Assembly (NCBI GenBank): GCA_037441385.1
Contig: JBBISH010000145.1
Coordinates: 1 to 14,272, forward strand
Length of the DNA: 14,272 nt
DNA from: Myxococcales bacterium
GTDB lineage: Bacteria > Myxococcota_A > UBA9042
Reading direction: 5' to 3'
Shown piece after piece: positions 1-14,272 of this stretch (its first letter is position 1; each line of letters opens with the position of its first letter). The position numbers and the translations under genes were made by a program. The notes under the pieces were generated by a model. That model did not search any database. It worked only from the letters and a program-made list of their open reading frames with translations, and was not told the origin of the DNA.

Positions 1-122
1 CGGACTCGAAGACCGACCGCTCAGACGCGGACCCGAACCGCGTAGCACGCGAACCGCCGGATGCGGACCCGCATGTCCGGTGGTGTGGGAGGGGCGTCGG
101 GCAACCGGCGCCCCTACCCGAT
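1..122 (+). mobile_element. 3' end of a group II intron, class IIC-like (domains V and VI); 5' part and any RT ORF lie upstream of the window
   Basis: Domain V hairpin at 53-84, ACCGCCGG-ATGCG-GACC-CGCAT-GT-CCGGTGGT, is short, has a CGC catalytic triad (55-57) and a 2-nt bulge. Domain VI at 87-119, GGGAGGGGCGTCGG-GCAA-CCGGCGCCCCT-A-CCC, has a GNRA loop and bulged branch A at 116. The element ends in ...CCCGAT (AY terminus) at 122. Confidence 0.93.
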
Positions 123-2587: not shown

Positions 2588-2726
2588 GGCAGATTCAGGC
2601 GACGCCTGCTTGTAGGCTGAGACAATTCACCTGCTCTGCGGCAAGGTTGCGACCTCTTCGGCGCCGCTCGCTGACCGCCCCGACCCCCTGGTGCGCCCAA
2701 GGCTGGGCCGGCTGCGCGAGGTGTCC

Positions 2727-3338
2727 ATGACGGGAGCCCCGATTGACTGGCCGGCGCTCCGCGACCGTCTGAGCGCGACGGCGAGCGAGCAAGCGGACGA
2801 AGAACCGCGTCGCGTAGCTCAGATCCTGCGGCAACGGGCGCGGACCGCGGCACAAGTGCCCGTAAAGGCAAGCGATGTGCCCACCCTCAGCGTGCTGACC
2901 TTTGGGTTGGCCGGCGAGACCTACGCCCTAGAAACCAAGCACGTGCGGCAAGTGTTTCGCCTCCACCGGTTGACGCCCCTGCCCGGCACGCCGCCCCACG
3001 TCGCGGGCGTGACCAACCTGCGTGGCAATGTGCTGGCCGTCTTGGATCTGCGGAGCTTCTTTGACATTCCCACCCGCGGCCTGGCCGAGTTCGACCGCGT
3101 GGTCGTGCTCGGCGACCCAGCCCACGGCGGCTTTGGCTTGCTGACGGACAGCATCGATGGAGTCCGCGCGTTGCCGGTTGGCGAACTGGCCGCGAACTTG
3201 CCCACGCTGGGCGGTGTGCGGGCGCGCTATCTGATCGGCGTGACTGCGAGCGCTGTGGTAGTGCTCGACGGCGCCAAACTCTTGGCCGACCCGGGCCTCA
3301 AAGTCGACGCCGTCCGCGGGCGCACTGGGGCAGTCTGA
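2727..3338 (+). CDS. cheW: Second CheW-family protein with N-terminal extension (WspD-like)
   Basis: YALETKHVRQV, LTPLPGTPPHVAGVTNLRGNVLAVLDL, FGLLTDSIDG. Start placed at ATG 2727 (GAGG at 2718-2721) rather than GTG 2691. Confidence 0.92.
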   Translation: MTGAPIDWPALRDRLSATASEQADEEPRRVAQILRQRARTAAQVPVKASDVPTLSVLTFGLAGETYALETKHVRQVFRLHRLTPLPGTPPHVAGVTNLRGNVLAVLDLRSFFDIPTRGLAEFDRVVVLGDPAHGGFGLLTDSIDGVRALPVGELAANLPTLGGVRARYLIGVTASAVVVLDGAKLLADPGLKVDAVRGRTGAV

Positions 3339-3362
3339 CCGACACCATCGAGGAGGATGACG

Positions 3363-5006
3363 ATGAACTGGTTCAAAAACCTGAAGATTCGCAACAAGCT
3401 GCTGCTCGGGTTTGCGGTGGTGGTGGCCACCATGATCGCCCAGGCCTACTTGAGCTACGCGGCGCTGGCGTCGATGCAGACCGTCGAGCGCGAAGAGGTG
3501 GCGCCGGCCGCGGCCGCGCTTGTGCAAATCGCCAGTGTGGTTCAACTCGAACACGCGATTCGCAAGACCACCCTCGCCTACATCACCTACCGCGATCCGA
3601 CGCAACGAGCAGGGTTCAAGCGCGACCTAGAGGCCCAAGTGACCGAGGCCACCGTGGGCCTGACCGCTCTAAAGGCCCGCATCGAGGCGCACATGCCGAC
3701 CGAGCGCGCGCTCATGGCCAGTATCGACAAAGAAATCAGCACGTATCGCAGCGGTCGCGAGCGCGAGTTCGAACTGGTAGCTGCCGGCAAGGACGACGAG
3801 GCCGTGGCCGCGAGCGGCGGCGAACAGGCGCGGCAACACGCGGCGATTCTTGCCGATTTGGGCAAGCTGCAGACCAATATCGAAGCGGTCCATCAAGCCG
3901 CAGTGGCCGAATCGACCCGCGTGTTCGACGTGGCCGGAAGGCAGCTCGCCGCAGTGGGCGTGGCCGCGGTGCTGTTGGCGTTGATCATCGTGCAATTGCT
4001 CAATGCTCTGTTGGCGGTGCCGCTCCGCGAGGTTCGGCGCATCGCCAACGCTGTGGCTGGGGGCGACTTGACCGTGACCGTGGCCGTGGACGCCCGCGCC
4101 GATGAGCTGGGCGAGTTGCAGCGTGCCCTGGCGACGATGGTGGACAGCTTGCGCGCGCAGGCGCGGCAACTCCAGGAAGGGTTTGGTATTTTGGCTGCGG
4201 CGGCCTCCGAAATCCTGGCCACGGCCACCCAAGTCGCCACCGGCGCGACCGAGACGGCGACCGCCGTGAGCGAGACGTCGGCCACGGTAGAGGAGGTCAA
4301 GCAAACCGCGCACTTGGCCGTTCAGAAGGCCGGGGCGGTCATGGATGCGTCGCGCAAGGCGGCGGCGGTCGCCCAGACCGGACTCAAGGCGGTCGAAGGC
4401 ACCGTGGCCGGCATGGGCCGCATCCGCGAACAGATGGAGGGGATCGCCGGCACCGTGGTTCGCCTAGCCGAACAGGGTCAAACGATTGGTGAAATCATCG
4501 CGACGGTCAGCGACCTGGCCGAGCAGTCGAACCTTCTGGCGGTCAACGCGGCCATCGAAGCGGCGCGGGCTGGCGAGCACGGTCGCGGTTTTTCCGTTGT
4601 GGCCCAAGAGGTGCGCAGTTTGGCCGAACAGTCGCGCGAAGCGACCGCTCAAATCCGCACGATCCTGATGGACATTCAAAAGGCCACGAGCGCTGCAGTG
4701 ATGACGACCGAGCAAGGGACCAAAGCAGTGGCCTTGGGCGTGCAGCAATCCGCAGATGCTGGTGAGTCGATTCGGGCGCTTGCTGCCGGAGTGGCCGAAG
4801 CAGCCCAGGCCGGCACGCAAATTGCTGCGTCGAGCCAGCAGCAGCTGATCGGCATGGATCAAGTAGCCGTGGCGATCGGCAACATTCGCGGGGCCGCGTC
4901 GCAAAATATGTCGGGTACCAAGCAACTAGAAGAGTCGGCCCGCAGTCTGCATGTGCTTGGAACCAAGCTGAAAGCGCTGGTCGACGCCGAGCGGCTCGCC
5001 ACCTGA
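3363..5006 (+). CDS. Methyl-accepting chemotaxis protein (TM, four-helix-bundle-like sensor, TM, HAMP, signalling domain)
   Basis: [18 protein letters not shown]-terminus, two hydrophobic segments, HAMP (PLREV...GDLT...DELGEL), hairpin tip [38 protein letters not shown] at 3351-3356 favours ATG 3363 over ATG 3357. Confidence 0.96.
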
Positions 5007-5028: not shown

Positions 5029-7443
5029 ATGGACAGCAAGCGAGAAGCATTCTTGGCCCGCCTGCGCGAGACCTTTCGGGTCGAGGCGGCTGAGCACCTG
5101 GAAGCAATCGGCCGCGGCGTGCTCGAGCTCGACCGCGAAACGGGTGTTGACCGGCAGGCCGTTGTCGAGCGGGTGTTTCGCGAGGCGCATTCGCTCAAGG
5201 GCGCGGCACGTTCGGTGAACCTGACGCGGGTCGAGGGGGTGAGCGCGGCCCTGGAAGGTGTCTTTGCGGCGGTCAAGCGCGGGGAGGTGCAGCCGTCACC
5301 TGGGCTCCTCGACGCGGTGCAAGAGGCCGTCGCGATCTTGGAGGTGGCGTGTGCCGGCTTGGCCGAACCGCCCGCCGAGCAGGTCACGGACCGCGAGCAT
5401 CGGGCAGTCGCCAAGCTGCAAGCGCTTGCGGGTGCCAGTGGCCCCCCGCAGCCCCGCGATGGGCCGACCCTGCCCCGCACTGCGCCAGCGCAGACGCCGG
5501 CACCCGTCGGCGCCAAGAGGAGCCAAGAGCAGGAGGCAGCTAAGGAATCACCGCCAACCCCAGCGGATCCCAGTCCCGGCGACAGCGTGCGCGTGGGCCT
5601 GGACAAGTTGGACCAGCTGTTGCGCGCGGCCGAAGGCCTGTTGCCCGAAAAGCTGGCGCGCCAAGCCTTGGCCAACGACCTGCGAGCGCTGACCGCCGAA
5701 GTCGCGGTGTGGAACCAGCGCTCGCGGCGCGAGGTCGGGCAGTTGCCCGCGGAGTTCACCGCGACCGCGCCGATGCACGCCGGGCCTGACGTGGCGGATC
5801 TGTTGCCGATGACGCTCCAGTTGGAGGCCACGCTGCGCAAGCTGAGCCAGGCTGCGCGCCGCGATGCATCGACCTTTGGCAGTGATCTGGACAGGTTGCT
5901 CGATCACGCGCGGTCGGTGCTCTTGCTCCCGTGCGCACAGCTACTGGGGCCGCTGGCGCTGACACTGCGCGAACTGGCCCGCGAGCAAGGCAAAGACGCC
6001 GAGCTCGTGATCAAAGGCGACGACATCGAGCTCGACCGGCGCGTGCTCGAGGCGCTCAAGGTGCCGCTCACGCATCTGATTCGCAACAGCGTGGATCATG
6101 GCATCGAGAAGCCGGATGTGCGCCGGCAACGCGGCAAGCCCGCGCGGGCGCGGGTGACACTGACGGTCCGACCGCTGGAAGGCCAGCGAATTTCCATCGA
6201 GTTTGCCGATGACGGCGGTGGCTTTGACTTGAGCCGGGCGCGGGCGGCGGCCGAACGCCACTTGCATCTGATCCCAGTTCCGTCCGAATCGGATCGAAAA
6301 CTCGGGCAATTATTCGGGCCCGAACCGGGGTCGCCGCCTGATTCTCGCCAGTTGCAGAACGCGTCAGAAAGTCCGTACAGGCGCGAATCAGGTGGGGTGC
6401 GTATGACGCCCGAGGCTGCGCGAGACCTGAGCGACGCCGAGGCGATCGAAATGCTGTTCCGCTCGGGGGTGAGCACCAGCCCGATGGTGACTGATCTTTC
6501 GGGTCGCGGCCTGGGCCTCGCGATCGTTCGCGAGAAGCTCGAACAGCTGGGCGGCAGCGTCACCGCCACGTCGCAGCCTGGCCAGGGCGCGCGATTCAAC
6601 CTGGAAGTGCCTTTGACTTTGGCGACCTTGCACGGCGTGCTGGTCCGCGCGGCAGATTTCAGCTTCATCATTCCGGCCGAGGGGGTGGTCGGTGTGGCGC
6701 GCTGGCGTTCGGGGGATCTGCGCAGCGCCGAAAACCGTCAGGTGGTCGAGTTTCGCGGCCGGCCGGTCGCGTGGGTGCGGCTGCGCGATGTGTTGGGGCT
6801 GGACGGGGCGGATCCCGAGGGCGTCGTGTCCCTGCCGGCGGTCATCGTTCGCTCGGGCGCATCCGAGGTTGCGCTACAAGTCGATGCCGTACTGGGCGAG
6901 CAAGAGGTAATGGTCAAAGATCTGGGTGCGCAACTGCGCCGCGTGCAGAACATCGCGGCGGCCTCAGTCAATGGTAGCGGCGCGGTGGTTCCCGTGCTGA
7001 GTGTCGCCGATCTGGTCGAGAACGCGCGCCTCACGGCTAGCCCAACGCAGCAAGAGGCGCCGTTTGCCGGCAAAGCGCAGCCGCGGCTGCTGATTGCCGA
7101 AGACTCGATCACGGCGCGGACCTTACTGAAAAGCATCCTGGAGGCTGCTGGTTACAGCGTGACGGCGACCGTGGATGGCCTGGATGCACTGACCCGGCTG
7201 AAGTCCGACCGTTTCGACCTGGTGGTCTCAGACGTCGACATGCCACGACTCAATGGCTTTGAACTGACCGCGCGTATTCGGTCTGACAAAAAACTCGCGG
7301 ATATCCCTGTCGTTTTGTGTACAGCGCTTGCCTCGCAGTCCGACAGAGAACATGGAGTGGAGGTCGGAGCCAGTGCCTACCTTGTCAAGAGTGACTTCGA
7401 CCAGGGCAATTTGCTCGACATCGTGCGACGGTTCGTTGGCTAG
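5029..7443 (+). CDS. cheA: Hybrid CheA-REC kinase (WspE/FrzE-like) carrying a 45-aa in-frame repeat-derived insertion
   Basis: Hpt FREAHSLKGAA; P3 SVRVGLDKLDQLL; N box HLIRNSVDHGIE; G1 DDGGG; F box LFRSGVST; G2 SGRGLGL; CheW-like P5; C-terminal REC (AEDS, SDVDMP, YLVKS). No P2 domain evident. Confidence 0.96.
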   Translation: MDSKREAFLARLRETFRVEAAEHLEAIGRGVLELDRETGVDRQAVVERVFREAHSLKGAARSVNLTRVEGVSAALEGVFAAVKRGEVQPSPGLLDAVQEAVAILEVACAGLAEPPAEQVTDREHRAVAKLQALAGASGPPQPRDGPTLPRTAPAQTPAPVGAKRSQEQEAAKESPPTPADPSPGDSVRVGLDKLDQLLRAAEGLLPEKLARQALANDLRALTAEVAVWNQRSRREVGQLPAEFTATAPMHAGPDVADLLPMTLQLEATLRKLSQAARRDASTFGSDLDRLLDHARSVLLLPCAQLLGPLALTLRELAREQGKDAELVIKGDDIELDRRVLEALKVPLTHLIRNSVDHGIEKPDVRRQRGKPARARVTLTVRPLEGQRISIEFADDGGGFDLSRARAAAERHLHLIPVPSESDRKLGQLFGPEPGSPPDSRQLQNASESPYRRESGGVRMTPEAARDLSDAEAIEMLFRSGVSTSPMVTDLSGRGLGLAIVREKLEQLGGSVTATSQPGQGARFNLEVPLTLATLHGVLVRAADFSFIIPAEGVVGVARWRSGDLRSAENRQVVEFRGRPVAWVRLRDVLGLDGADPEGVVSLPAVIVRSGASEVALQVDAVLGEQEVMVKDLGAQLRRVQNIAAASVNGSGAVVPVLSVADLVENARLTASPTQQEAPFAGKAQPRLLIAEDSITARTLLKSILEAAGYSVTATVDGLDALTRLKSDRFDLVVSDVDMPRLNGFELTARIRSDKKLADIPVVLCTALASQSDREHGVEVGASAYLVKSDFDQGNLLDIVRRFVG
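6272..6403 (+). mobile_element. 132-bp MITE-like palindromic element, copy 1 (in frame inside cheA)
   Basis: 7 mismatches to copy 3 over 132 nt by manual alignment; flanked by TGA (6269-6271) and TGA (6404-6406). Confidence 0.9.
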
Positions 7444-7500
7444 TACTAAGAACCCGAAGTTCTTTCCGGGTTAGGATCTTCGAATGGTTTGTAGCACTAG
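7440..7500. repeat. CTAG-flanked imperfect palindrome overlapping the cheA stop codon
   Basis: CTAGTACTAAGAACC versus the reverse complement of the right end CTAGTGCTACAAACC (12/15); inner CGAAGTTCTT / AGGATCTTCG arms; AT-rich relative to its surroundings. Confidence 0.6.
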
Positions 7501-7582
7501 CATTTTCAGTCAGCAAAGGGGGCGCGCCGCGCACTCTTGGACGCCCGCCCCCTGCGACCCGCGCGCGCGGCTAGCGCCGCGT

Positions 7583-7631
7583 AGTACACCGAGGGGCCGC
7601 AACTCGGAACGAACTTACGGCTTGGTGTACT
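7583..7631. repeat. Imperfect palindrome/hairpin upstream of cheB
   Basis: Outer stem AGTACACCGAG...CTTGGTGTACT and inner stem GCCGCAACTCG / CGAACTTACGGC. Confidence 0.6.
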
Positions 7632-7652
7632 TGGCCGCGAAGGGGGGGACGG

Positions 7653-8726
7653 ATGATCGATGTGCTGCTGGTCGAGGATTCGCCAACCACGGCGGCGCAT
7701 CTTGGCTTTCTCCTTGGCGAAGCCACGGGCTTTCGCCTGATCGGTGTCGCAAGTTCAGCGGAACAAGCCTTGCGCATGCTCGCGACGAGCAACCCGCAGG
7801 TGGTGTTGATGGACATCCACTTGCCAGGGATCGACGGCGTCGAGGCCACGCGGCACATCATGAGCACCCGACCGCTGCCCGTGGTCCTGTGCACCGCCAG
7901 CACCAATGCGGCCGACCTGCGCCTGGTCATGCGCTGCATGGAGGCCGGGGCCCTGGCCGTGGTCAAAAAGCCTCGCGGCTTTGGCGAGGACGACGGCGAC
8001 GCCGCCAAACTTATCGAAACGCTTCGACTCATGTCCGAAGTGCGGCTGGTGCGCCGCTGGTCCAGCACGCTCTTGGCCCCCGATTTGTCGAGTGGTGTCG
8101 CGCCGCCCGCGGCTCTGGCCGCGCCAGCCGTGGTCGCGATGGGCGCCTCGACCGGCGGGCCGCCCGTGCTGCAGCAGATCCTGGCAGAGCTACCGCGCGA
8201 TTTCCCTTTGCCGATCCTAGTGGTGCAGCACCTTGCCCCCGGCTTTGTCGCCGCGCTGGCGCAGTGGCTGGCGGCGGAGGCGCAGCGACCCGTGGAGGTC
8301 GCCCAACCTGGTGTGACGCCGCGGCCGGGGCACGTCTACTTGGCTGCCGACGACGGACACCTGGAGGTCGGCCCGCGCGGTCAACTTGTGCTGACGAGCG
8401 GTGCGCCCGTCAATGGCGCTCGGCCGGCAGTAGATGTGCTGTTTCGAAGCGTGGGCGACCGGTTTGGCGCCAACGTCATCGCCGTGTTGCTGACGGGAAT
8501 GGGGCGCGACGGTGCCGGCGAACTCAAGCGGCTGGCGGACCTTGGCGCGCTGACCATCGCTCAAGACGAGAAATCTTCTGCGGTTTTTGGCATGCCCGGC
8601 GCCGCTGTCGCGTTGGGTGCGGCCCGTAACGTCCTGGCGCCCGCCGCCATTGCGCAATTGCTTGCGCAGCGCGCCTGCCGACCCGAAGCCGGGGCGGGCA
8701 ACTCCGCGCGTGTCGGGGAGGTGTGA
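7653..8726 (+). CDS. cheB: CheB methylesterase (REC + esterase domain; WspF-like)
   Basis: REC (LLVEDS, MDIHLPGIDG, KKP); catalytic motifs GASTGGP, VQHL, LTGMGRDGA, AQDE and FGMP. Confidence 0.96.
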   Translation: MIDVLLVEDSPTTAAHLGFLLGEATGFRLIGVASSAEQALRMLATSNPQVVLMDIHLPGIDGVEATRHIMSTRPLPVVLCTASTNAADLRLVMRCMEAGALAVVKKPRGFGEDDGDAAKLIETLRLMSEVRLVRRWSSTLLAPDLSSGVAPPAALAAPAVVAMGASTGGPPVLQQILAELPRDFPLPILVVQHLAPGFVAALAQWLAAEAQRPVEVAQPGVTPRPGHVYLAADDGHLEVGPRGQLVLTSGAPVNGARPAVDVLFRSVGDRFGANVIAVLLTGMGRDGAGELKRLADLGALTIAQDEKSSAVFGMPGAAVALGAARNVLAPAAIAQLLAQRACRPEAGAGNSARVGEV

Positions 8727-8769
8727 TCTTGGCTGTACAGACGAGCAACTCGATTTCTTGCAGGCGTGA

Positions 8770-8901
8770 TACCAGTTCCGTCCGAGTCGGATCGAAAACT
8801 CGGGCAATTCTTCGGGCCCGAACCGGGGTCCCCGCCTGATTCTCGCCGGTTGCAGACCGGGTCAGAGAAGCCGTACAGGCGTGAATCAGACGGGGTTCGT
8901 A
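8770..8901 (+). mobile_element. 132-bp MITE-like palindromic element, copy 2 (between cheB and the kinase gene)
   Basis: 9 mismatches to copy 3 by manual alignment; flanked by TGA (8767-8769) and TGA (8902-8904). Confidence 0.9.
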
Positions 8902-8916
8902 TGAGTGAGGTTTGCG

Positions 8917-11900
8917 ATGCGTCCTGATTTCCACCAAGGTGCGCGTATCCTGGTCGTGGAAGACAGCCCGACCCAGCGCCAAGAGCTGCAGATGGTGCTC
9001 GAGGACGAGGGATTCACCGTGGCCGTTGCCGAGAACGGTCGCCTTGGACTCGACTTGGCCAAGTCGCAGCCCTTCGATCTGGTGATCACCGACGTCGTCA
9101 TGCCCGAGATGGACGGCTTTCAGCTGTGTCATTCGCTCCGCCGCGACGCGCGCTTGGCCGACATTCCGGTCGTGCTCCTGACTTCGCTGAGCGACGCTGC
9201 CGATGTGGTGCGAGCGCTCGAGGTGGGCGCCAACAATTTTGTGCGCAAGCCCTTGGCGCCCGAATACCTGCTGACGCGCGTGCACAGCATCCTGGCAACC
9301 GAGGAAGTGCGGCGGCAGTCGCGCGGTGCGCCGGTATCGGCGGTCCGTGTCGGCGGCAAGGCTTTTCAACTGCGCGCCGAACAGCTCGACCGGCTCGATG
9401 GGCTGCTGACGATGTTCGATGGCGCGGACCTGGAGCTGGAGGACCCGCCACCAGGCCTGGACCGGCCATTGCGCGTCTTGGCGGTGGACGACAGTGCGAC
9501 GAGCGCCGCGTTGGTCAAGCACGAGCTAGAGGCGCGGGATTTCTTGGTGACCGTGGCCACCGATGGTCGCGAGGCGTTGGCGCTGCTCGAGCAGGTGCGC
9601 GTCGACGCGGTCGTGTCGGACCTGGTGATGCCAAATCTGGACGGTCTGGGCCTGTGTCGGGCACTGCGCGCCGATCCCAGGTTCGAGCGACTGCCCGTTG
9701 TTCTGGTCTCGGCGCTGGCCGACCCGCTGGATTTGGTGGCTGGCATCGAGGCGGGCGCCGACCGTTTTGTCCGCAAGCCATGTCACGGTCCCGCGCTGGC
9801 GGGAACGCTGCGCCGCTTGGTGGCTCAGCGGTGTCACGATGCGCCGGAGCCCAAGGCGCCCGACGTCGACCTTGTCTATTCGGGTCAGCACTATCGAATT
9901 GGCGCTAGTCGTTTGCAGATGCTCGACCTGCTGATGTCGAGCTACATGAGCGCGATGCAGCAGAACGAGGAGCTTGCCCAGGCTCAGGCCGAATTGCGCC
10001 GCGCCAACGAGACCTTGGAGGCACGTGTCAGCCTGCGCACCCGGCAATTGAGCAGGCGCGTTCGCGAGTTGAGCTGCATGCACAGCGCGTCGCAGTTGTT
10101 CGCCCAGGTCCATGTGTCGGTCGATGCGGTGATCCCGCCGTTTCTCGACGTCATCGTCAAGGGTTTTGACTATCCGGGCCACGCGGCGGCGCGCCTGGCG
10201 CTGGATGGGCGCGAGTGGCGCACAGGCGAGTGGCGCACAGGTGCCACCGACCTTGCCGCGGGTGCTCACCTCGAGACGCCGGTGTTCGTGGCGGGGCAGC
10301 GGCGCGGTAGCTTGTCCGTGACGTGGCCAGCGCCTGTGCCGGGTGATGCGGCGGGCCTGCCAAGCTCAGAAGAGCGCGACCTGCTGACGAGCCTGGCCAA
10401 TTTGCTGGGTGAGCACCTTGCGATGCTGGAAGAAGAGCTGCGCCGGCAAGAGGCCGAGCGCGAGTTGCATCGCGCGGTGGCGCGCTTGGAGGCATTTTGG
10501 CAGTTCAGCACCCGAGAGGATGCCAGCGCTCCGGACTTGTACGCGGCCGCGGCGGAGCAGATGGTGCGGATGACCGCCAGCCCTCTGGGTCTTTGGGCCA
10601 CCGTCAGCGACCACGGCGCCGCGATGGGTGTCCAAGCTCTGTGTGTCGCGTTTGCGGGCGAGGCCAAGCAGGTCCCCGTGCCTGGGGTGTTGCCCGTGGC
10701 GCCGGGTAGCGTGTGGGCCCAGGTCGTGCGCAATCGAACGCCGGCCATCGTGGCGGATCCGGGTGCGCTGGAATTGGGCGAAGGGTGGCAACTGCCCGTG
10801 TCTACGGCGATTCGTCGCCTGCTGGTGGTCCCAGCTCTTGAGGGCGAGCGCGTGGTTGCGCTTGCCGCCGTGGCGGACCATGGCGCTCCGTACGATGACT
10901 CGGACGCCCGGCAGCTGGGCTCGTTTGTGAGCGCGGTGTTGACCCGCATCAAGTTGCGCAGCGGCCAAGAGGCACTGGCCAAAAGCGAAGCGCTGTTCCG
11001 GGGTTCAACCGAGGCGATGATGGACGCCCTTGGCGTGTTTCGGGCAGTGCGCGGGGCGGACGGTCGCGTGGACGACTTTGCGGTAGAGTACGTCAATCCC
11101 GCGGCGCAGGCCGCGGACGGTTGCTTCGATGGGACGTATGCTGACAAAATGATGAGTGAATTGTCGCCCATGTGGCAGTCGACCCAACTGGCCGAGGCGT
11201 TTGCTCGGGTGGTCGAGTCGAGCGAGCCTTTTGCCGGGGATGCCTGGGCGTGCGAGCCGGCCGACGCGGCTGCCGGCGAAACGTGTTGGTACGATCTCCG
11301 CGCTGGCAAACTTGGCGATGGCGTGATCGTCTCTTGGCGCAATGTGACCGAGCGCGTGCGCGCCCAGGCCGAACGAGACGCCGTTCAGGCCAACCTGGCT
11401 CAGACTGACCGATTGTCGAGCATGGGCCTGCTGGCAGCTGGCGTTGCCCACGAAATCAACAACGCACTCAACTACGTGACGCACTCGACGAGCTTGCTCG
11501 GTGCGCTGGTCCCCGCAGTGGTCGATCAGCTGCGGCGCAGCCACGCCATGATTGCCAGCATCTTTGGCCAGGACGAGTTGATCCAGGCGATGGGCGGCCC
11601 TCCCCTGGCGCCCGAACGTCTGGACAGCGCGGTCGAGATGGTGGCCATTGCCCAAAACGGCGTAAAGAGAATCGCGGCCATCGCGAGCAATCTAAGGACA
11701 TTTTCGCGATCCGATCAGAACGAACTCAGCTTGGTCGACCTGCGCGAGCCGCTGGAATACGCCACCACCGTGGCGTACAACGAGTACAAGTACCGCGCTG
11801 AATTGGTCAAAGAGTTTGGCGATGTACCAGCCGTCCGGGCGTCGGAGGGTAAACTAGCCCAAGTGTTCCTCAACCTCATCATCAACGCCGCCCACGCCAT

Positions 11901-12195
11901 CCCGGCGGGGCAAGGTCCCGGCCATCAGATCCGCATACGGACCTGGAACGACGGCGCTTGGGTGTGCGCATCTATCAGCGACACGGGCAACGGCATTGCA
12001 CCCGAAGACCGCGACCGGATCTTTCGGCCGTTCTTCACTACCAAGAAATCGGGTGTTGGCACCGGCCTTGGCCTGTCGATCTGCAAGAACATCGTCGAGA
12101 GCCTGGGGGGCACGATCGAGTTTGCCAGCGAGCAGGGGCGCGGCACCACCTTTGCCGTGCGCCTGCCGGTGCCCGCTCAGCCAGACGTCGCCTGA
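8917..12195 (+). CDS. Multi-domain sensor histidine kinase: REC-REC-coiled coil-GAF-like-GAF-PAS-HisKA-HATPase_c
   Basis: REC1 (VEDS, TDVVMPEMDG, RKP); REC2 (VDDS, SDLVMPNLDG, RKP); GAF-like LLVVPALEGERVVAL; PAS (YVNPAA...RNVTER); H box AGVAHEINN; N box QVFLNLIINAAHA; DTGNG; FFTTK; GTGLGL. Start placed at ATG 8917 (TGAGG at 8906-8910) rather than GTG 8905. Confidence 0.93.
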   Translation: MRPDFHQGARILVVEDSPTQRQELQMVLEDEGFTVAVAENGRLGLDLAKSQPFDLVITDVVMPEMDGFQLCHSLRRDARLADIPVVLLTSLSDAADVVRALEVGANNFVRKPLAPEYLLTRVHSILATEEVRRQSRGAPVSAVRVGGKAFQLRAEQLDRLDGLLTMFDGADLELEDPPPGLDRPLRVLAVDDSATSAALVKHELEARDFLVTVATDGREALALLEQVRVDAVVSDLVMPNLDGLGLCRALRADPRFERLPVVLVSALADPLDLVAGIEAGADRFVRKPCHGPALAGTLRRLVAQRCHDAPEPKAPDVDLVYSGQHYRIGASRLQMLDLLMSSYMSAMQQNEELAQAQAELRRANETLEARVSLRTRQLSRRVRELSCMHSASQLFAQVHVSVDAVIPPFLDVIVKGFDYPGHAAARLALDGREWRTGEWRTGATDLAAGAHLETPVFVAGQRRGSLSVTWPAPVPGDAAGLPSSEERDLLTSLANLLGEHLAMLEEELRRQEAERELHRAVARLEAFWQFSTREDASAPDLYAAAAEQMVRMTASPLGLWATVSDHGAAMGVQALCVAFAGEAKQVPVPGVLPVAPGSVWAQVVRNRTPAIVADPGALELGEGWQLPVSTAIRRLLVVPALEGERVVALAAVADHGAPYDDSDARQLGSFVSAVLTRIKLRSGQEALAKSEALFRGSTEAMMDALGVFRAVRGADGRVDDFAVEYVNPAAQAADGCFDGTYADKMMSELSPMWQSTQLAEAFARVVESSEPFAGDAWACEPADAAAGETCWYDLRAGKLGDGVIVSWRNVTERVRAQAERDAVQANLAQTDRLSSMGLLAAGVAHEINNALNYVTHSTSLLGALVPAVVDQLRRSHAMIASIFGQDELIQAMGGPPLAPERLDSAVEMVAIAQNGVKRIAAIASNLRTFSRSDQNELSLVDLREPLEYATTVAYNEYKYRAELVKEFGDVPAVRASEGKLAQVFLNLIINAAHAIPAGQGPGHQIRIRTWNDGAWVCASISDTGNGIAPEDRDRIFRPFFTTKKSGVGTGLGLSICKNIVESLGGTIEFASEQGRGTTFAVRLPVPAQPDVA
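10211..10240 (+). repeat. In-frame 15-bp perfect tandem duplication (EWRTG x2) in the kinase gene
   Basis: GCGAGTGGCGCACAG at 10211-10225 and 10226-10240. Confidence 0.9.
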
Positions 12196-12254
12196 ACCGC
12201 GCTGCCGATGCGGAACTTGCCCCCTGCGTCTCCGGCTGCCGGGCCGATAAGGAA

Positions 12255-12386
12255 TACCAATTCCGTCCGAATCGGATCGAAAACTCGGGCAATTCTTCGG
12301 GCCCGAACCGGGGTCCCCGCCTGATTCTCGCCAGTTGCAGAACGGGTCAGAAAAGCCGTACAGGCGCGAATCAGGTGGGGTGCGTA
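12255..12386 (+). mobile_element. 132-bp MITE-like palindromic element, copy 3 (downstream of the kinase, between convergent genes)
   Basis: Same length and orientation as copies 1 and 2; flanks GAA (12252-12254) and TAA (12387-12389), consistent with a TAA duplication carrying one substitution. Confidence 0.88.
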
Positions 12387-12432
12387 TAAAATCCTTTAAT
12401 TTCGACTAGTAGAAATTGGGGGGCATTTCTGG

Positions 12433-12468
12433 CCAGCTACTTGCACAGTACACCAGCTACTTGCACAG
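12433..12468. repeat. 16-bp direct repeat duplicating the last codons and stop of the minus-strand gene
   Basis: CCAGCTACTTGCACAG at 12433-12448 and 12453-12468, separated by TACA. Confidence 0.88.
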
Positions 12469-14272
12469 GCCCGACTGGCAGGTCTTGCCGGTCGCGCAGA
12501 CAAAGCCCTCTGGATACGCGGCGGTCTGGCAACCCAGCTTGACGTCACAGCTGTCCAGGGTGCACGGGTTGAAGTCGTTGCACACCACGTCGCTGCCCAC
12601 GCACTTGCCGCCGGTGCAGGTCTCGCCCGTAGTGCACACGTTGCCATCGTCGCAGCTGTTGCTGTGCGGCGTGTGGCTGCAGGTACCGCTGCAGGCCTCG
12701 GTGGTGCAGGGGTCACCGTCGCTGCAATCGTCCCAGGACTTGGTCCCGCAGCCGTTGACGCAGCCCTTGTTGGCCCAGGGGTCCATGCGCATGATCCAAG
12801 CCGAGTTTTCCTTGCCTGCCGGCTTGGCCTGGCCGACCACGACCAGCGCGCCCGTGTCGTCGCGGACGATGGCCCCCGTCTCGGGCGCCATGTACTCCAT
12901 GTTGGTGCCGCCGGCCACCGTGCTGAGGATCTTTCCCGTCTCGTCCACTCGCCACACCTGCAGAAAACCGCCCCAATCTGGCCCCTGCCGCCCGGCGAGC
13001 ACCACAGTGTCGTCGGGCAGAGCCACCAGCCCGCCTACATGCAGCTCGACCGCTGACGGCGGCGAGATGTTGAGCAGCACCTGACCATCGACCGACACGT
13101 GCGCCAACCAGCGCCCTGGGGCAGAGTTGTGGTCGCCGGCCGCCCACACCGTGCCGTTTGGTCCCACGGCCAGGGTGCGGAACTGCTCGCCGTCGCTGGT
13201 GCCAAGGCGAACATTGCGCACGAACTTGAGGCTGGGGTACTCAAAGAACGCGATCTCGCCGTCGGTGTTGCCAAATCCTCCTGCGCCCGGCGTGGAGTCG
13301 GCGGTGAGGCCTGCCGTCGCAATCAGCTTGGGTGTCACGAACGCGCACGCGTAGAACCGTTGCGGATCCGGTGGATCGTAAGCAGTGGCAGCCAGTTGCG
13401 TGCCGTCGCTGCCGTAGGCAAAGAGCACGCCGTGCTCCCAGGCGCCGCAGTTGCAGGTGCTGTAGCCGCACGCCACAAACTCCCCGTTTTTGTTCGGGTG
13501 GGCACTGGCGCCGGTGCCCAGGTTGGCTGCGCTGCTCTGGCCTGGAGTGGTCATCACCTTGCTCCACAGAACGGTGCCGTTGCTCGCCAGCCTTTCTACG
13601 ATGTACTTGGGTACGTTCTCGCTCGTGTAGCCCATCGCGCCGTAGGTGCCATCGCCCAGGTTGACGACCGCGGTGAGCACAGGCCCTGGCAGGTCGGTGT
13701 TGATCTCGGCGAGCGCAAACGTAGAGCCCCCGCGGCCCGCGTGCAGAAATAGGCTGTGGGCGGGGGCGCTCCACACGTTCTGCGTGCCGCGTCCCACCGC
13801 CACCACGCCGTCGCTGGTCGGGGCGACACCCAACAGGCCCTCTCCGCTGGATGTGCCGAACTTCGCCATCCCCTTGTCCCAGTAGCGCGGCTTGTTCGGG
13901 TCCGATTTGCAGGTGCCGGCGCTGCACACGTCTTCTTCGGTGCAGCTACCCGACACACACGCGGCGGTATTGGGCGCGAACTGGCAGCCCTTGACCTTGT
14001 CGCACGAGTTGTCGGTGCAGACGTTGCCGTCGTCGCACGGGCTGGCGACTTCGGGCAGGCAGACCCCGCCCTTGCAGTGGCTCAGGCTGGTGCAGGCGTC
14101 GCCGTCGTCGCAAGGGTCGGCGTTGTTGGCGTAGACGCACTTGGCGGTGACGAAATTGCAGCTGTCGTCGGTGCAGGGGTTCTTGTCGTCGCAGCTGAGG
14201 ACGCCCTTGCACTGCGCTTGGTTGCATACGTCCAAGAGCGTGCAGCCGTTGCCGTCGTCGCACGGCGTCGTG
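12457..14272 (-). CDS. Cys-rich repeat protein (CDDGNxCTxDxC repeats) with a central beta-propeller-like domain, probably extracellular; 5'-partial
   Basis: The frame is open to the window edge (…TTPCDDGNGCTLLDVC…). Multiple CDD(G/K)NxCTxD repeats flank a ~370-aa beta-strand/Gly-rich region (GTVLWSK, GTVWAAG, GALVVVG). The propeller assignment is inferred from these repeats. Confidence 0.85.
   Translation of the reverse strand, partial: TTPCDDGNGCTLLDVCNQAQCKGVLSCDDKNPCTDDSCNFVTAKCVYANNADPCDDGDACTSLSHCKGGVCLPEVASPCDDGNVCTDNSCDKVKGCQFAPNTAACVSGSCTEEDVCSAGTCKSDPNKPRYWDKGMAKFGTSSGEGLLGVAPTSDGVVAVGRGTQNVWSAPAHSLFLHAGRGGSTFALAEINTDLPGPVLTAVVNLGDGTYGAMGYTSENVPKYIVERLASNGTVLWSKVMTTPGQSSAANLGTGASAHPNKNGEFVACGYSTCNCGAWEHGVLFAYGSDGTQLAATAYDPPDPQRFYACAFVTPKLIATAGLTADSTPGAGGFGNTDGEIAFFEYPSLKFVRNVRLGTSDGEQFRTLAVGPNGTVWAAGDHNSAPGRWLAHVSVDGQVLLNISPPSAVELHVGGLVALPDDTVVLAGRQGPDWGGFLQVWRVDETGKILSTVAGGTNMEYMAPETGAIVRDDTGALVVVGQAKPAGKENSAWIMRMDPWANKGCVNGCGTKSWDDCSDGDPCTTEACSGTCSHTPHSNSCDDGNVCTTGETCTGGKCVGSDVVCNDFNPCTLDSCDVKLGCQTAAYPEGFVCATGKTCQSGLCK

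Follow-up and report, generated by a model that had tools for sequence, protein, structure and literature searches.

The 14,272-nt contig JBBISH010000145.1 (GC content ~66%) of the Myxococcales bacterium assembly GCA_037441385.1 was analysed over its whole length, referred to here as the window, and it carries a chemotaxis operon interspersed with copies of a short repeated element. A repeat search of the window returned one outstanding family, consisting of three direct, same-strand copies (positions 6271–6404, 8769–8902, and 12254–12387). Element copy 1 (6272–6403, + strand) lies in frame inside a gene encoding a CheA-type kinase fused to a receiver (cheA-cheY; 5029–7443, + strand; domains Hpt, HATPase_c, CheW, and Response_reg), where it occupies approximately residues 415 to 459 and is flanked by the triplets TGA (6269–6271) and TGA (6404–6406). 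Element copy 2 (8770–8901, + strand) is situated in the spacer between cheB (7653–8726, + strand, assigned by domain scan) and a hybrid sensor kinase gene (8905–12195, + strand; two receivers, GAF, PAS, and HATPase_c), again between two TGA triplets (8767–8769 and 8902–8904). It begins 43 nt past the cheB stop codon and ends just upstream of a GAGG motif and the ATG at 8917, which is the likely true start of the hybrid kinase. Element copy 3 (12255–12386, + strand), flanked by GAA (12252–12254) and TAA (12387–12389), is located between two convergent genes, i.e., between the stop of the hybrid kinase at 12195 and the stop, at 12457, of a minus-strand gene.

Pairwise comparison of the three window copies over 134 nt gave 120/134, 127/134, and 125/134 identical positions (89–95%), and an alignment that included 40-nt flanks revealed that the similarity starts and stops abruptly at the element ends, the sequences beyond being unrelated. 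Chance cannot account for three 132-nt copies at this level of identity. A sequence-only reading of the window, made without database searches, had described three direct copies of equal length at these positions, copies 1 and 2 being about 95% and 93% identical to copy 3, with the flanking triplets TGA/TGA, TGA/TGA, and GAA/TAA, and the repeat search and the 134-nt counts bear out this description. The same reading had pointed to a frame-preserving length and two stop-free frames on the + strand. Both hold, since the 132-nt element plus a 3-nt repeat amounts to 135 nt, a number divisible by three, and + frames 0 and 2 (but not frame 1) are free of stop codons in 3/3 window copies. The stop-free frames are nevertheless weak evidence, because about one-third of frames are estimated to be open by chance at 66% GC; the peptides that they could encode are only 44–45 residues long.

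The cheA-cheY open reading frame (ORF) reads intact through copy 1, and the GC content by codon position exhibits a coding pattern, in the same frame, on either side of it. Within the protein, the HATPase_c match is stretched across residues 346–530. When CheA was compared with its 59 best relatives, at most 52% identical by BLASTP, a gap of ~44–45 residues was found exactly at CheA residues 415–459 in 59/59 aligned homologues. Furthermore, E. coli CheA (6s1k) aligns to residues 291–408 and 464–662 of the query, leaving the insert unmatched between 6s1k residues 434 and 442, a position that falls, within the catalytic domain, in the interval from the G1 to the F box. As judged from these comparisons, copy 1 is a 135-nt in-frame insertion in an otherwise intact kinase gene, whose product would presumably continue to function with the insert.

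The exact 20-mer of the conserved core of the element had 0 matches in 185,579 species-representative genomes, which places the organism of the window outside this set, and a word-indexed protein search with the insert peptide, which is insensitive here and missed the second kinase described below, returned only CheA itself and protein P0121 (32/45 identity). A peptide-alignment scan of the species-representative genomes yielded 21 loci, 20 of which (L001–L020) belong to a single metagenome-assembled genome (MAG), JACRCU01, labelled Deltaproteobacteria bacterium. The remaining locus, L021 from Actinomycetota (tblastn E 2e-4), was rejected as a family member, as nhmmer finds nothing there. Searching the window and the loci with nhmmer produced 36 hits, 27 of them full length (three in the window and 24 in the MAG) and surrounded by unrelated flanks. 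With ends defined by extrapolation from the coordinates of the hidden Markov model, 21 of these 27 copies are 132 nt long, five are 131 nt, and one is 133 nt. Identity between window and MAG copies averages 78% (range 70–86%), and that among MAG copies 79% (range 67–95%); the three window copies form one clade. Five of the MAG copies were picked up solely in sequence flanking the 20 ascertained ones, which corresponds to ~27 extra copies per Mb of flank; extrapolated, this density would put the number of copies per genome in the hundreds.

A second in-frame copy was found in the MAG (L008 3753–3884), within a 1599-codon ORF for a PAS/GAF/kinase protein (hybrid kinase). The deposited annotation reads through it (protein P0127), and gaps occur at the insertion site in all six of the high-scoring segment pairs that span it (of 92 in total). 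The frame of this copy matches that of copy 1, so that both genic copies share one frame, and both follow the orientation of the gene. The sequence-only reading had proposed that the element is tolerated inside genes, and the evidence for this is stronger than was stated there, with one copy in frame in cheA and another in a hybrid kinase of a different genome. A diverged copy is also present in the Ser/Thr kinase P0124, at residues 363–405, past the kinase domain. The two full-length cases are clean natural examples of a 45-residue in-frame insertion in a sensor kinase, one of them in the catalytic domain of CheA, and should help to gauge how large an insertion these domains can accommodate. 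RPE, BRE, BOX, and ERIC elements are known to be carried in frame within proteins, and the Rickettsia palindromic elements (RPE) and betaproteobacterial BRE are short palindromes that insert in frame within genes and keep the ORF (PMC10969869 and PMC3184786). The cheA and L008 copies resemble the latter two in being in frame with the ORF kept. In contrast, and compared by description, genic copies are the exception in the present family (2/27), most others lying on stop codons or in spacers, and the host lineage is different.

The protein P0121, a spurious ORF on another contig, provided a comparison with the cheA–cheB spacer of the window. Its residues 1–5 are those of residues 1–5 of a window ORF (7484–7591); next comes a 49-residue stretch with an element copy where the window has four residues, and P0121 residues 55–81 then match residues 10–36 of the window ORF at 21/27 positions. 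At the protein level, P0121 thus exceeds the window spacer by exactly 45 codons, or 135 nt. The codons of P0121 imply a T-N-A on either side of the copy, and the window has TCA at the matching place (7506–7508, + strand, as placed from the codons). From these sequences, the two spacers look orthologous, the other genome carrying an insertion at a site that is unoccupied in the window; the window spacer is not repeated in the MAG loci. The search for empty sites therefore gave, at the protein level, this spacer site and the 59 of 59 CheA homologues without the insert.

These data also bear on the explanation that the window copies arose by local segmental duplication or gene conversion in the che locus, without transposition, to which the occurrence of three same-strand copies of one clade within 6.1 kb would lend itself. 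However, the flanks are unrelated past the triplets, each copy has flanking triplets of its own, 24 further full-length copies exist in the 20 loci of JACRCU01, and one site that is empty in the window is occupied in another genome. Thus, copies are not confined to the window locus, and the probability that we assign to local duplication is close to nil.

The sequences flanking the copies were analysed statistically in the 26 scorable cases. The flanks read T-N-A on both sides, the outer T being present in 20/26 copies and the outer A in 23/26, and the central base is equal on the left and on the right in 24/26 copies, compared with 8.8 expected (0/20000 permutations). On the left side, this base is C in 11 copies, G in 9, A in 4, and T in 2. 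Such a pattern is characteristic of T-N-A targets that are cut with a stagger. Duplication of the target is observed for its central base, and a duplication of the full 3 bp is proposed.

The gene context of the copies was derived from a simple GC3 frame plot checked against Pfam, and the gene calls are correspondingly crude. In 9/27 copies, a flanking triplet is the exact stop codon (TGA) of the neighbouring gene, which reads into the left end of the element in four cases and into the right end in five; six of these nine genes have a Pfam match (RNase_T, AlgH-like, RuvB, AhpC/TSA, DUF2330, and WD40). The triplet that terminates the frame was in frame before the insertion, and therefore the target was the stop codon itself. 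The examined sequence contains 3350 T-N-A sites, of which 60 are stop codons, 457 are intergenic, and 2833 are coding. About five more stop-codon sites had been masked together with the right-hand triplets, so 65 (of 3355) were used for comparison. The proportion of 9/27 is far above 65/3355 and also above the 65/522 calculated for non-coding sites (P ~0.002). The spacers upstream of genes are not neutral, and this excess may be explained by selection alone. Only two of the 27 copies lie inside genes although 2833/3350 T-N-A sites are coding, which we read as selection against genic insertion and as support for a mobile element.

Copies would survive at harmless places. Those on stop codons would do so since TGA is itself a T-N-A site and insertion would keep a stop beside the gene, and others would survive in short spacers, mostly downstream of genes. 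The rare survival within genes would involve an in-frame addition of 135 nt, use of one open + frame, and a tolerant loop or linker. With a third of its copies on stop codons, the family illustrates that, where genes are densely packed, a transposon with a T-N-A target can come close to neutrality. Among the ~20 classifiable intergenic copies, eight lie between convergent genes, ten between tandem genes (five in each orientation), and two between divergent genes. Both orientations thus occur elsewhere, and the shared orientation of the three window copies, highlighted by the sequence-only reading, is not a trait of the family. Enrichment downstream of genes and between convergent genes has been read as the mark of a parasitic element for the pneumococcal BOX, RUP, and SPRITE repeats (PMC3049150). 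The present element resembles these, as well as the Correia and ERIC repeats, in being small, structured, and multi-copy, and in the 8 of ~20 copies between convergent genes; it differs from them in being GC-rich with a conserved core, whereas they are AT-rich with clearer inverted ends. A specific resemblance to ERIC, suggested earlier from the TAC…GTA ends, found no support. As a separate observation, at L003 682–3525 (− strand) three open frames follow one another in one phase with single stops between them, the element separating the second from the third; these could represent a broken gene or adjacent genes that are in phase by chance.

The element begins with TACC and finishes with GCATA. 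Its left half forms small hairpins and its right half one long hairpin, with energies of −52 to −60 kcal/mol and a z score of about −3 in five of the six strands folded. Comparing the first 20 nt with the reverse complement of the last 20 nt gave 10, 13, and 12 matches within the single window copies; the 14/19 inverted-repeat count of the sequence-only reading stands as the best pairing across two copies, not as a property of any one of them. In the consensus, 11/20 terminal positions are inverted-symmetric in register, a value reached by 21/5000 shuffles, or by 147/5000 when offsets are allowed.

Strong folding, poor true inverted termini, subterminal hairpins, and copies located mostly just downstream (3′) of genes are also features of REP/BIME-like or IS200/IS605-derived palindromic elements, whose single-stranded DNA would be mobilised by an HUH (RAYT/TnpA) enzyme. 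REP/BIME elements are palindromes of 20–40 nt without target duplication, and IS200/IS605-derived elements make no duplication and insert strand-specifically 3′ of a fixed short target. The present element differs from both: at 132 nt it far exceeds the length of a REP, its central target base is variable and is duplicated in 24/26 copies, and it occurs in both orientations (four same and five opposite at stop codons, 5/5 in tandem pairs). Moreover, the middle base varies within the stop-codon target, where we would expect a fixed tetranucleotide, and none of the 167 ORFs of at least 150 aa from L001–L020 matched a Y1/HUH family. We therefore consider an origin of this type very unlikely.

An equally small probability is given to a functional structured RNA or regulatory module (a 3′ stabiliser, an attenuator, or a small RNA) maintained by selection rather than by selfish spread. 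The stable folds, the conservation of the core at ≥90%, and the positions of copies in operon spacers and 3′ of genes would agree with such a function. However, pairing and covariation are no better than in shuffles (84.1% versus 83.2% paired; covariation 0.104 versus 0.101, with 148/500 shuffles as high), which gives no indication that an RNA structure of the element is under selection. No Rfam match was obtained on the window copies at E values up to 1, nor on L001–L012 at gathering scores, and no tRNA-like features were found. A promoter and terminator scan was at chance level, with six terminator-like sites against 5.5 expected and no U-tract. Finally, the occurrence of both orientations and of some copies within coding regions also argues against a functional RNA.

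We consider it probable that the element represents a family of short, non-coding, non-autonomous DNA transposons, similar to miniature inverted-repeat transposable elements (MITE-like), with a consensus of 132 nt organised in two hairpin halves. The evidence that carries this reading comprises the dispersal of copies among unrelated flanks, the duplication of the central target base, the insertion in cheA, and one presence/absence difference between genomes. According to the mechanism that we propose, the genome would encode a transposase at another place; this enzyme would cut a T-N-A target with a short stagger, and the target would be duplicated during repair. Among known enzyme types, that of the IS1031 subgroup of the IS5 family fits best, given its preference for TNA and its 3-bp direct repeats (PMC12016507). 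It is the only family for which we could document both properties, and the element resembles it in having T-N-A flanks with a covarying middle base. Hence, the family is probably moved by an IS5/IS1031-like enzyme. The sequence-only reading had postulated a non-autonomous element mobilised in trans; its MITE-like nature is supported by the present data, and the mobilisation in trans by an IS5-type enzyme is a step that we infer.

Several observations weigh against the MITE-like reading. The search for a transposase covered ~202 kb, made up of the 14-kb window and 188 kb of loci. Of the 72 window ORFs listed at ≥80 aa, 11 were scanned, and no transposase family matched any of these, in line with the earlier claim that the window contains no transposase, and the 167 MAG ORFs mentioned above gave no such match either. 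The search for a transposase-bearing element with the same termini was likewise negative throughout the ~202 kb: no longer element with these ends was found in the window or the loci, and no left and right ends paired at a distance of 200–4000 nt except those of two separate copies in L008. The family is also rare in public data, a profile search of 1.84 billion representative proteins returning six hits, among them the Ser/Thr kinase P0124 and the CHAT/TPR protein P0123, with the reservation that these representatives are clustered at 50% identity, so that proteins differing only by the insert are hidden. As for the termini, aligning the two ends locally scores no higher than shuffled sequence does (1502/2000 shuffles reach it), the sole strong inverted repeat lies inside the element (positions ~60–77 pairing with 110–128, 15/17; 2/2000 shuffles), and the outer 3 nt are less conserved than core positions 44–80. 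Ends that are weaker than the core are the reverse of what is typical of a MITE. Besides these weak inverted termini and the absence of a transposase or full-length partner in the ~202 kb, the element differs from the IS1031 subgroup in its TAC start, which is unlike the 17-bp end of ISLrh, the single end compared (PMC12016507). Concerning the flanks, the triplets are perfect on both sides in only 7/26 copies, so that, of the consistent target duplication anticipated by the sequence-only reading, the T-N-A flanks and the equal central base are upheld, with a duplication of either 1 or 3 bp. The abutting bases often deviate, the left −1 base being A in 14/26 copies and the right +1 base T in 17/26. 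Finally, copies with G at right +1 cluster on a tree built from internal columns only, with 5 changes versus 8.2 expected (9/2000 shuffles as low). Either the junction decays oddly, or the central base alone is duplicated.

The latter option corresponds to the same mobile family moved by an unconventional mechanism, in which a T|N|A target would have its central base alone duplicated, the adjoining bases would be the variable ends of the element, and recognition by the enzyme would depend on the conserved core or the subterminal hairpins instead of on inverted termini. Consistent with this proposal, the central base alone covaries, flank positions 1 and 3 matching no better than in permutations; G at right +1 tracks the internal tree, as if travelling with the element; hairpins lie a few bases inside both ends; the core is better conserved than the termini; and the non-stop side deviates in 7/9 of the stop-codon insertions. 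Against it, the majority abutting bases (A on the left, T on the right) are those predicted by a 3-bp T-N-A duplication, the tree evidence comprises only 121 columns and 27 rows, the left −1 base has no tree signal, and we know of no family with a 1-bp duplication. In addition, duplication length already varies (0, 2, or 3 bp) within PHIS, a eukaryotic superfamily related to IS5, as described in PMC12730594. On balance, we regard the unconventional mechanism as unlikely. It is about as unlikely that the enzyme is of an undescribed kind that reads the core or subterminal hairpins instead of inverted ends, cuts at T|N|A, duplicates one base, and in addition prefers stop codons. If this were true, insertion would regenerate the stop and be nearly harmless, and the element would be a stop-codon-homing transposon. 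As a side observation on the right junction, copies with G after the right end read AGGA or AGGAG there, and in one of them (L001 10134–10160) the junction region lies ~13 nt before the ATG of the next gene, so that it could be a candidate for a newly made ribosome-binding site.

Returning to the MITE-like family, the remaining nhmmer hits are fragments, among them right-hand 80-nt stretches arrayed in tandem, a copy that is inverted and internally deleted, and a left half on its own. In the array (L007 5201–5416 and L019 1–150), the right-hand 80-nt half of one copy (positions 51–128) is tandemly repeated at least three times, and the end of L007 and the start of L019 probably join at this point. 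The inverted, internally deleted copy (L004 10145–10205) lies 12 nt from a full copy. The lone left half, at the end of L010 (10776–10851), was considered as a lead to a partner element and dropped, there being no transposase ORF after it. Internal tandem expansion, a deleted inverted copy, and half copies are typical of decaying transposon families. A Porphyromonas gingivalis MITE is reported to carry a minisatellite, an internal tandem expansion (PMC4596501), to which the array of right-hand halves is comparable; the host is unrelated and the sequence apparently so, the two being set apart by description. In protein databases, the first 44 residues of the CHAT/TPR protein P0123 are an element copy, and its start has probably been mis-called. 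Copies of the element thus account for ORFs that are spurious or extended, examples being P0121, P0122, and the beginning of P0123, as well as for contig breaks at such sites. Independently of the 132-nt element, the MAG contains a second, unrelated family of small repeats (~72–80 nt), with four copies that are ~86% identical (L010 11207–11278; L010 5230–5300, − strand; L004 9849–9922, − strand; and L011 7921–7991, − strand).

A search of the open-access literature uncovered no account of this family, none of any MITE from the lineage, and none of MITEs targeting stop codons, and plasmid and phage collections gave no match to the element. Judged against these sources and Rfam, none of which matched it to a described family, the element constitutes a new family belonging to a well-known kind, as the sequence-only reading had proposed. 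With it, a poorly known, GC-rich, myxobacterium-like lineage for which no MITE description was found gains a well-documented family of small transposons, and the stop-codon targets and odd junction anatomy of this family are features that deserve follow-up.

The domain scan also identified the other genes of the chemotaxis operon around the copies. Upstream of cheA-cheY lie, all on the + strand, genes for CheW (644–1192), CheR (1196–2587), a second CheW (2691–3338), and a methyl-accepting chemotaxis protein (MCP; 3357–5006), and the minus-strand gene that converges on the hybrid kinase (12457–14271) encodes a Cys-rich repeat protein. At the left edge of the window, positions 52–122 (+ strand) match Rfam Intron_gpII (domains V/VI) above the gathering score (43.2 bits, E 8e-6), and the contig start seems to lie inside the 3′ end of a group II intron, another mobile element at the contig edge. 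At the other side of the operon, a 16-nt motif is directly duplicated at positions 12431–12467, at the 3′ end of the Cys-rich repeat gene.

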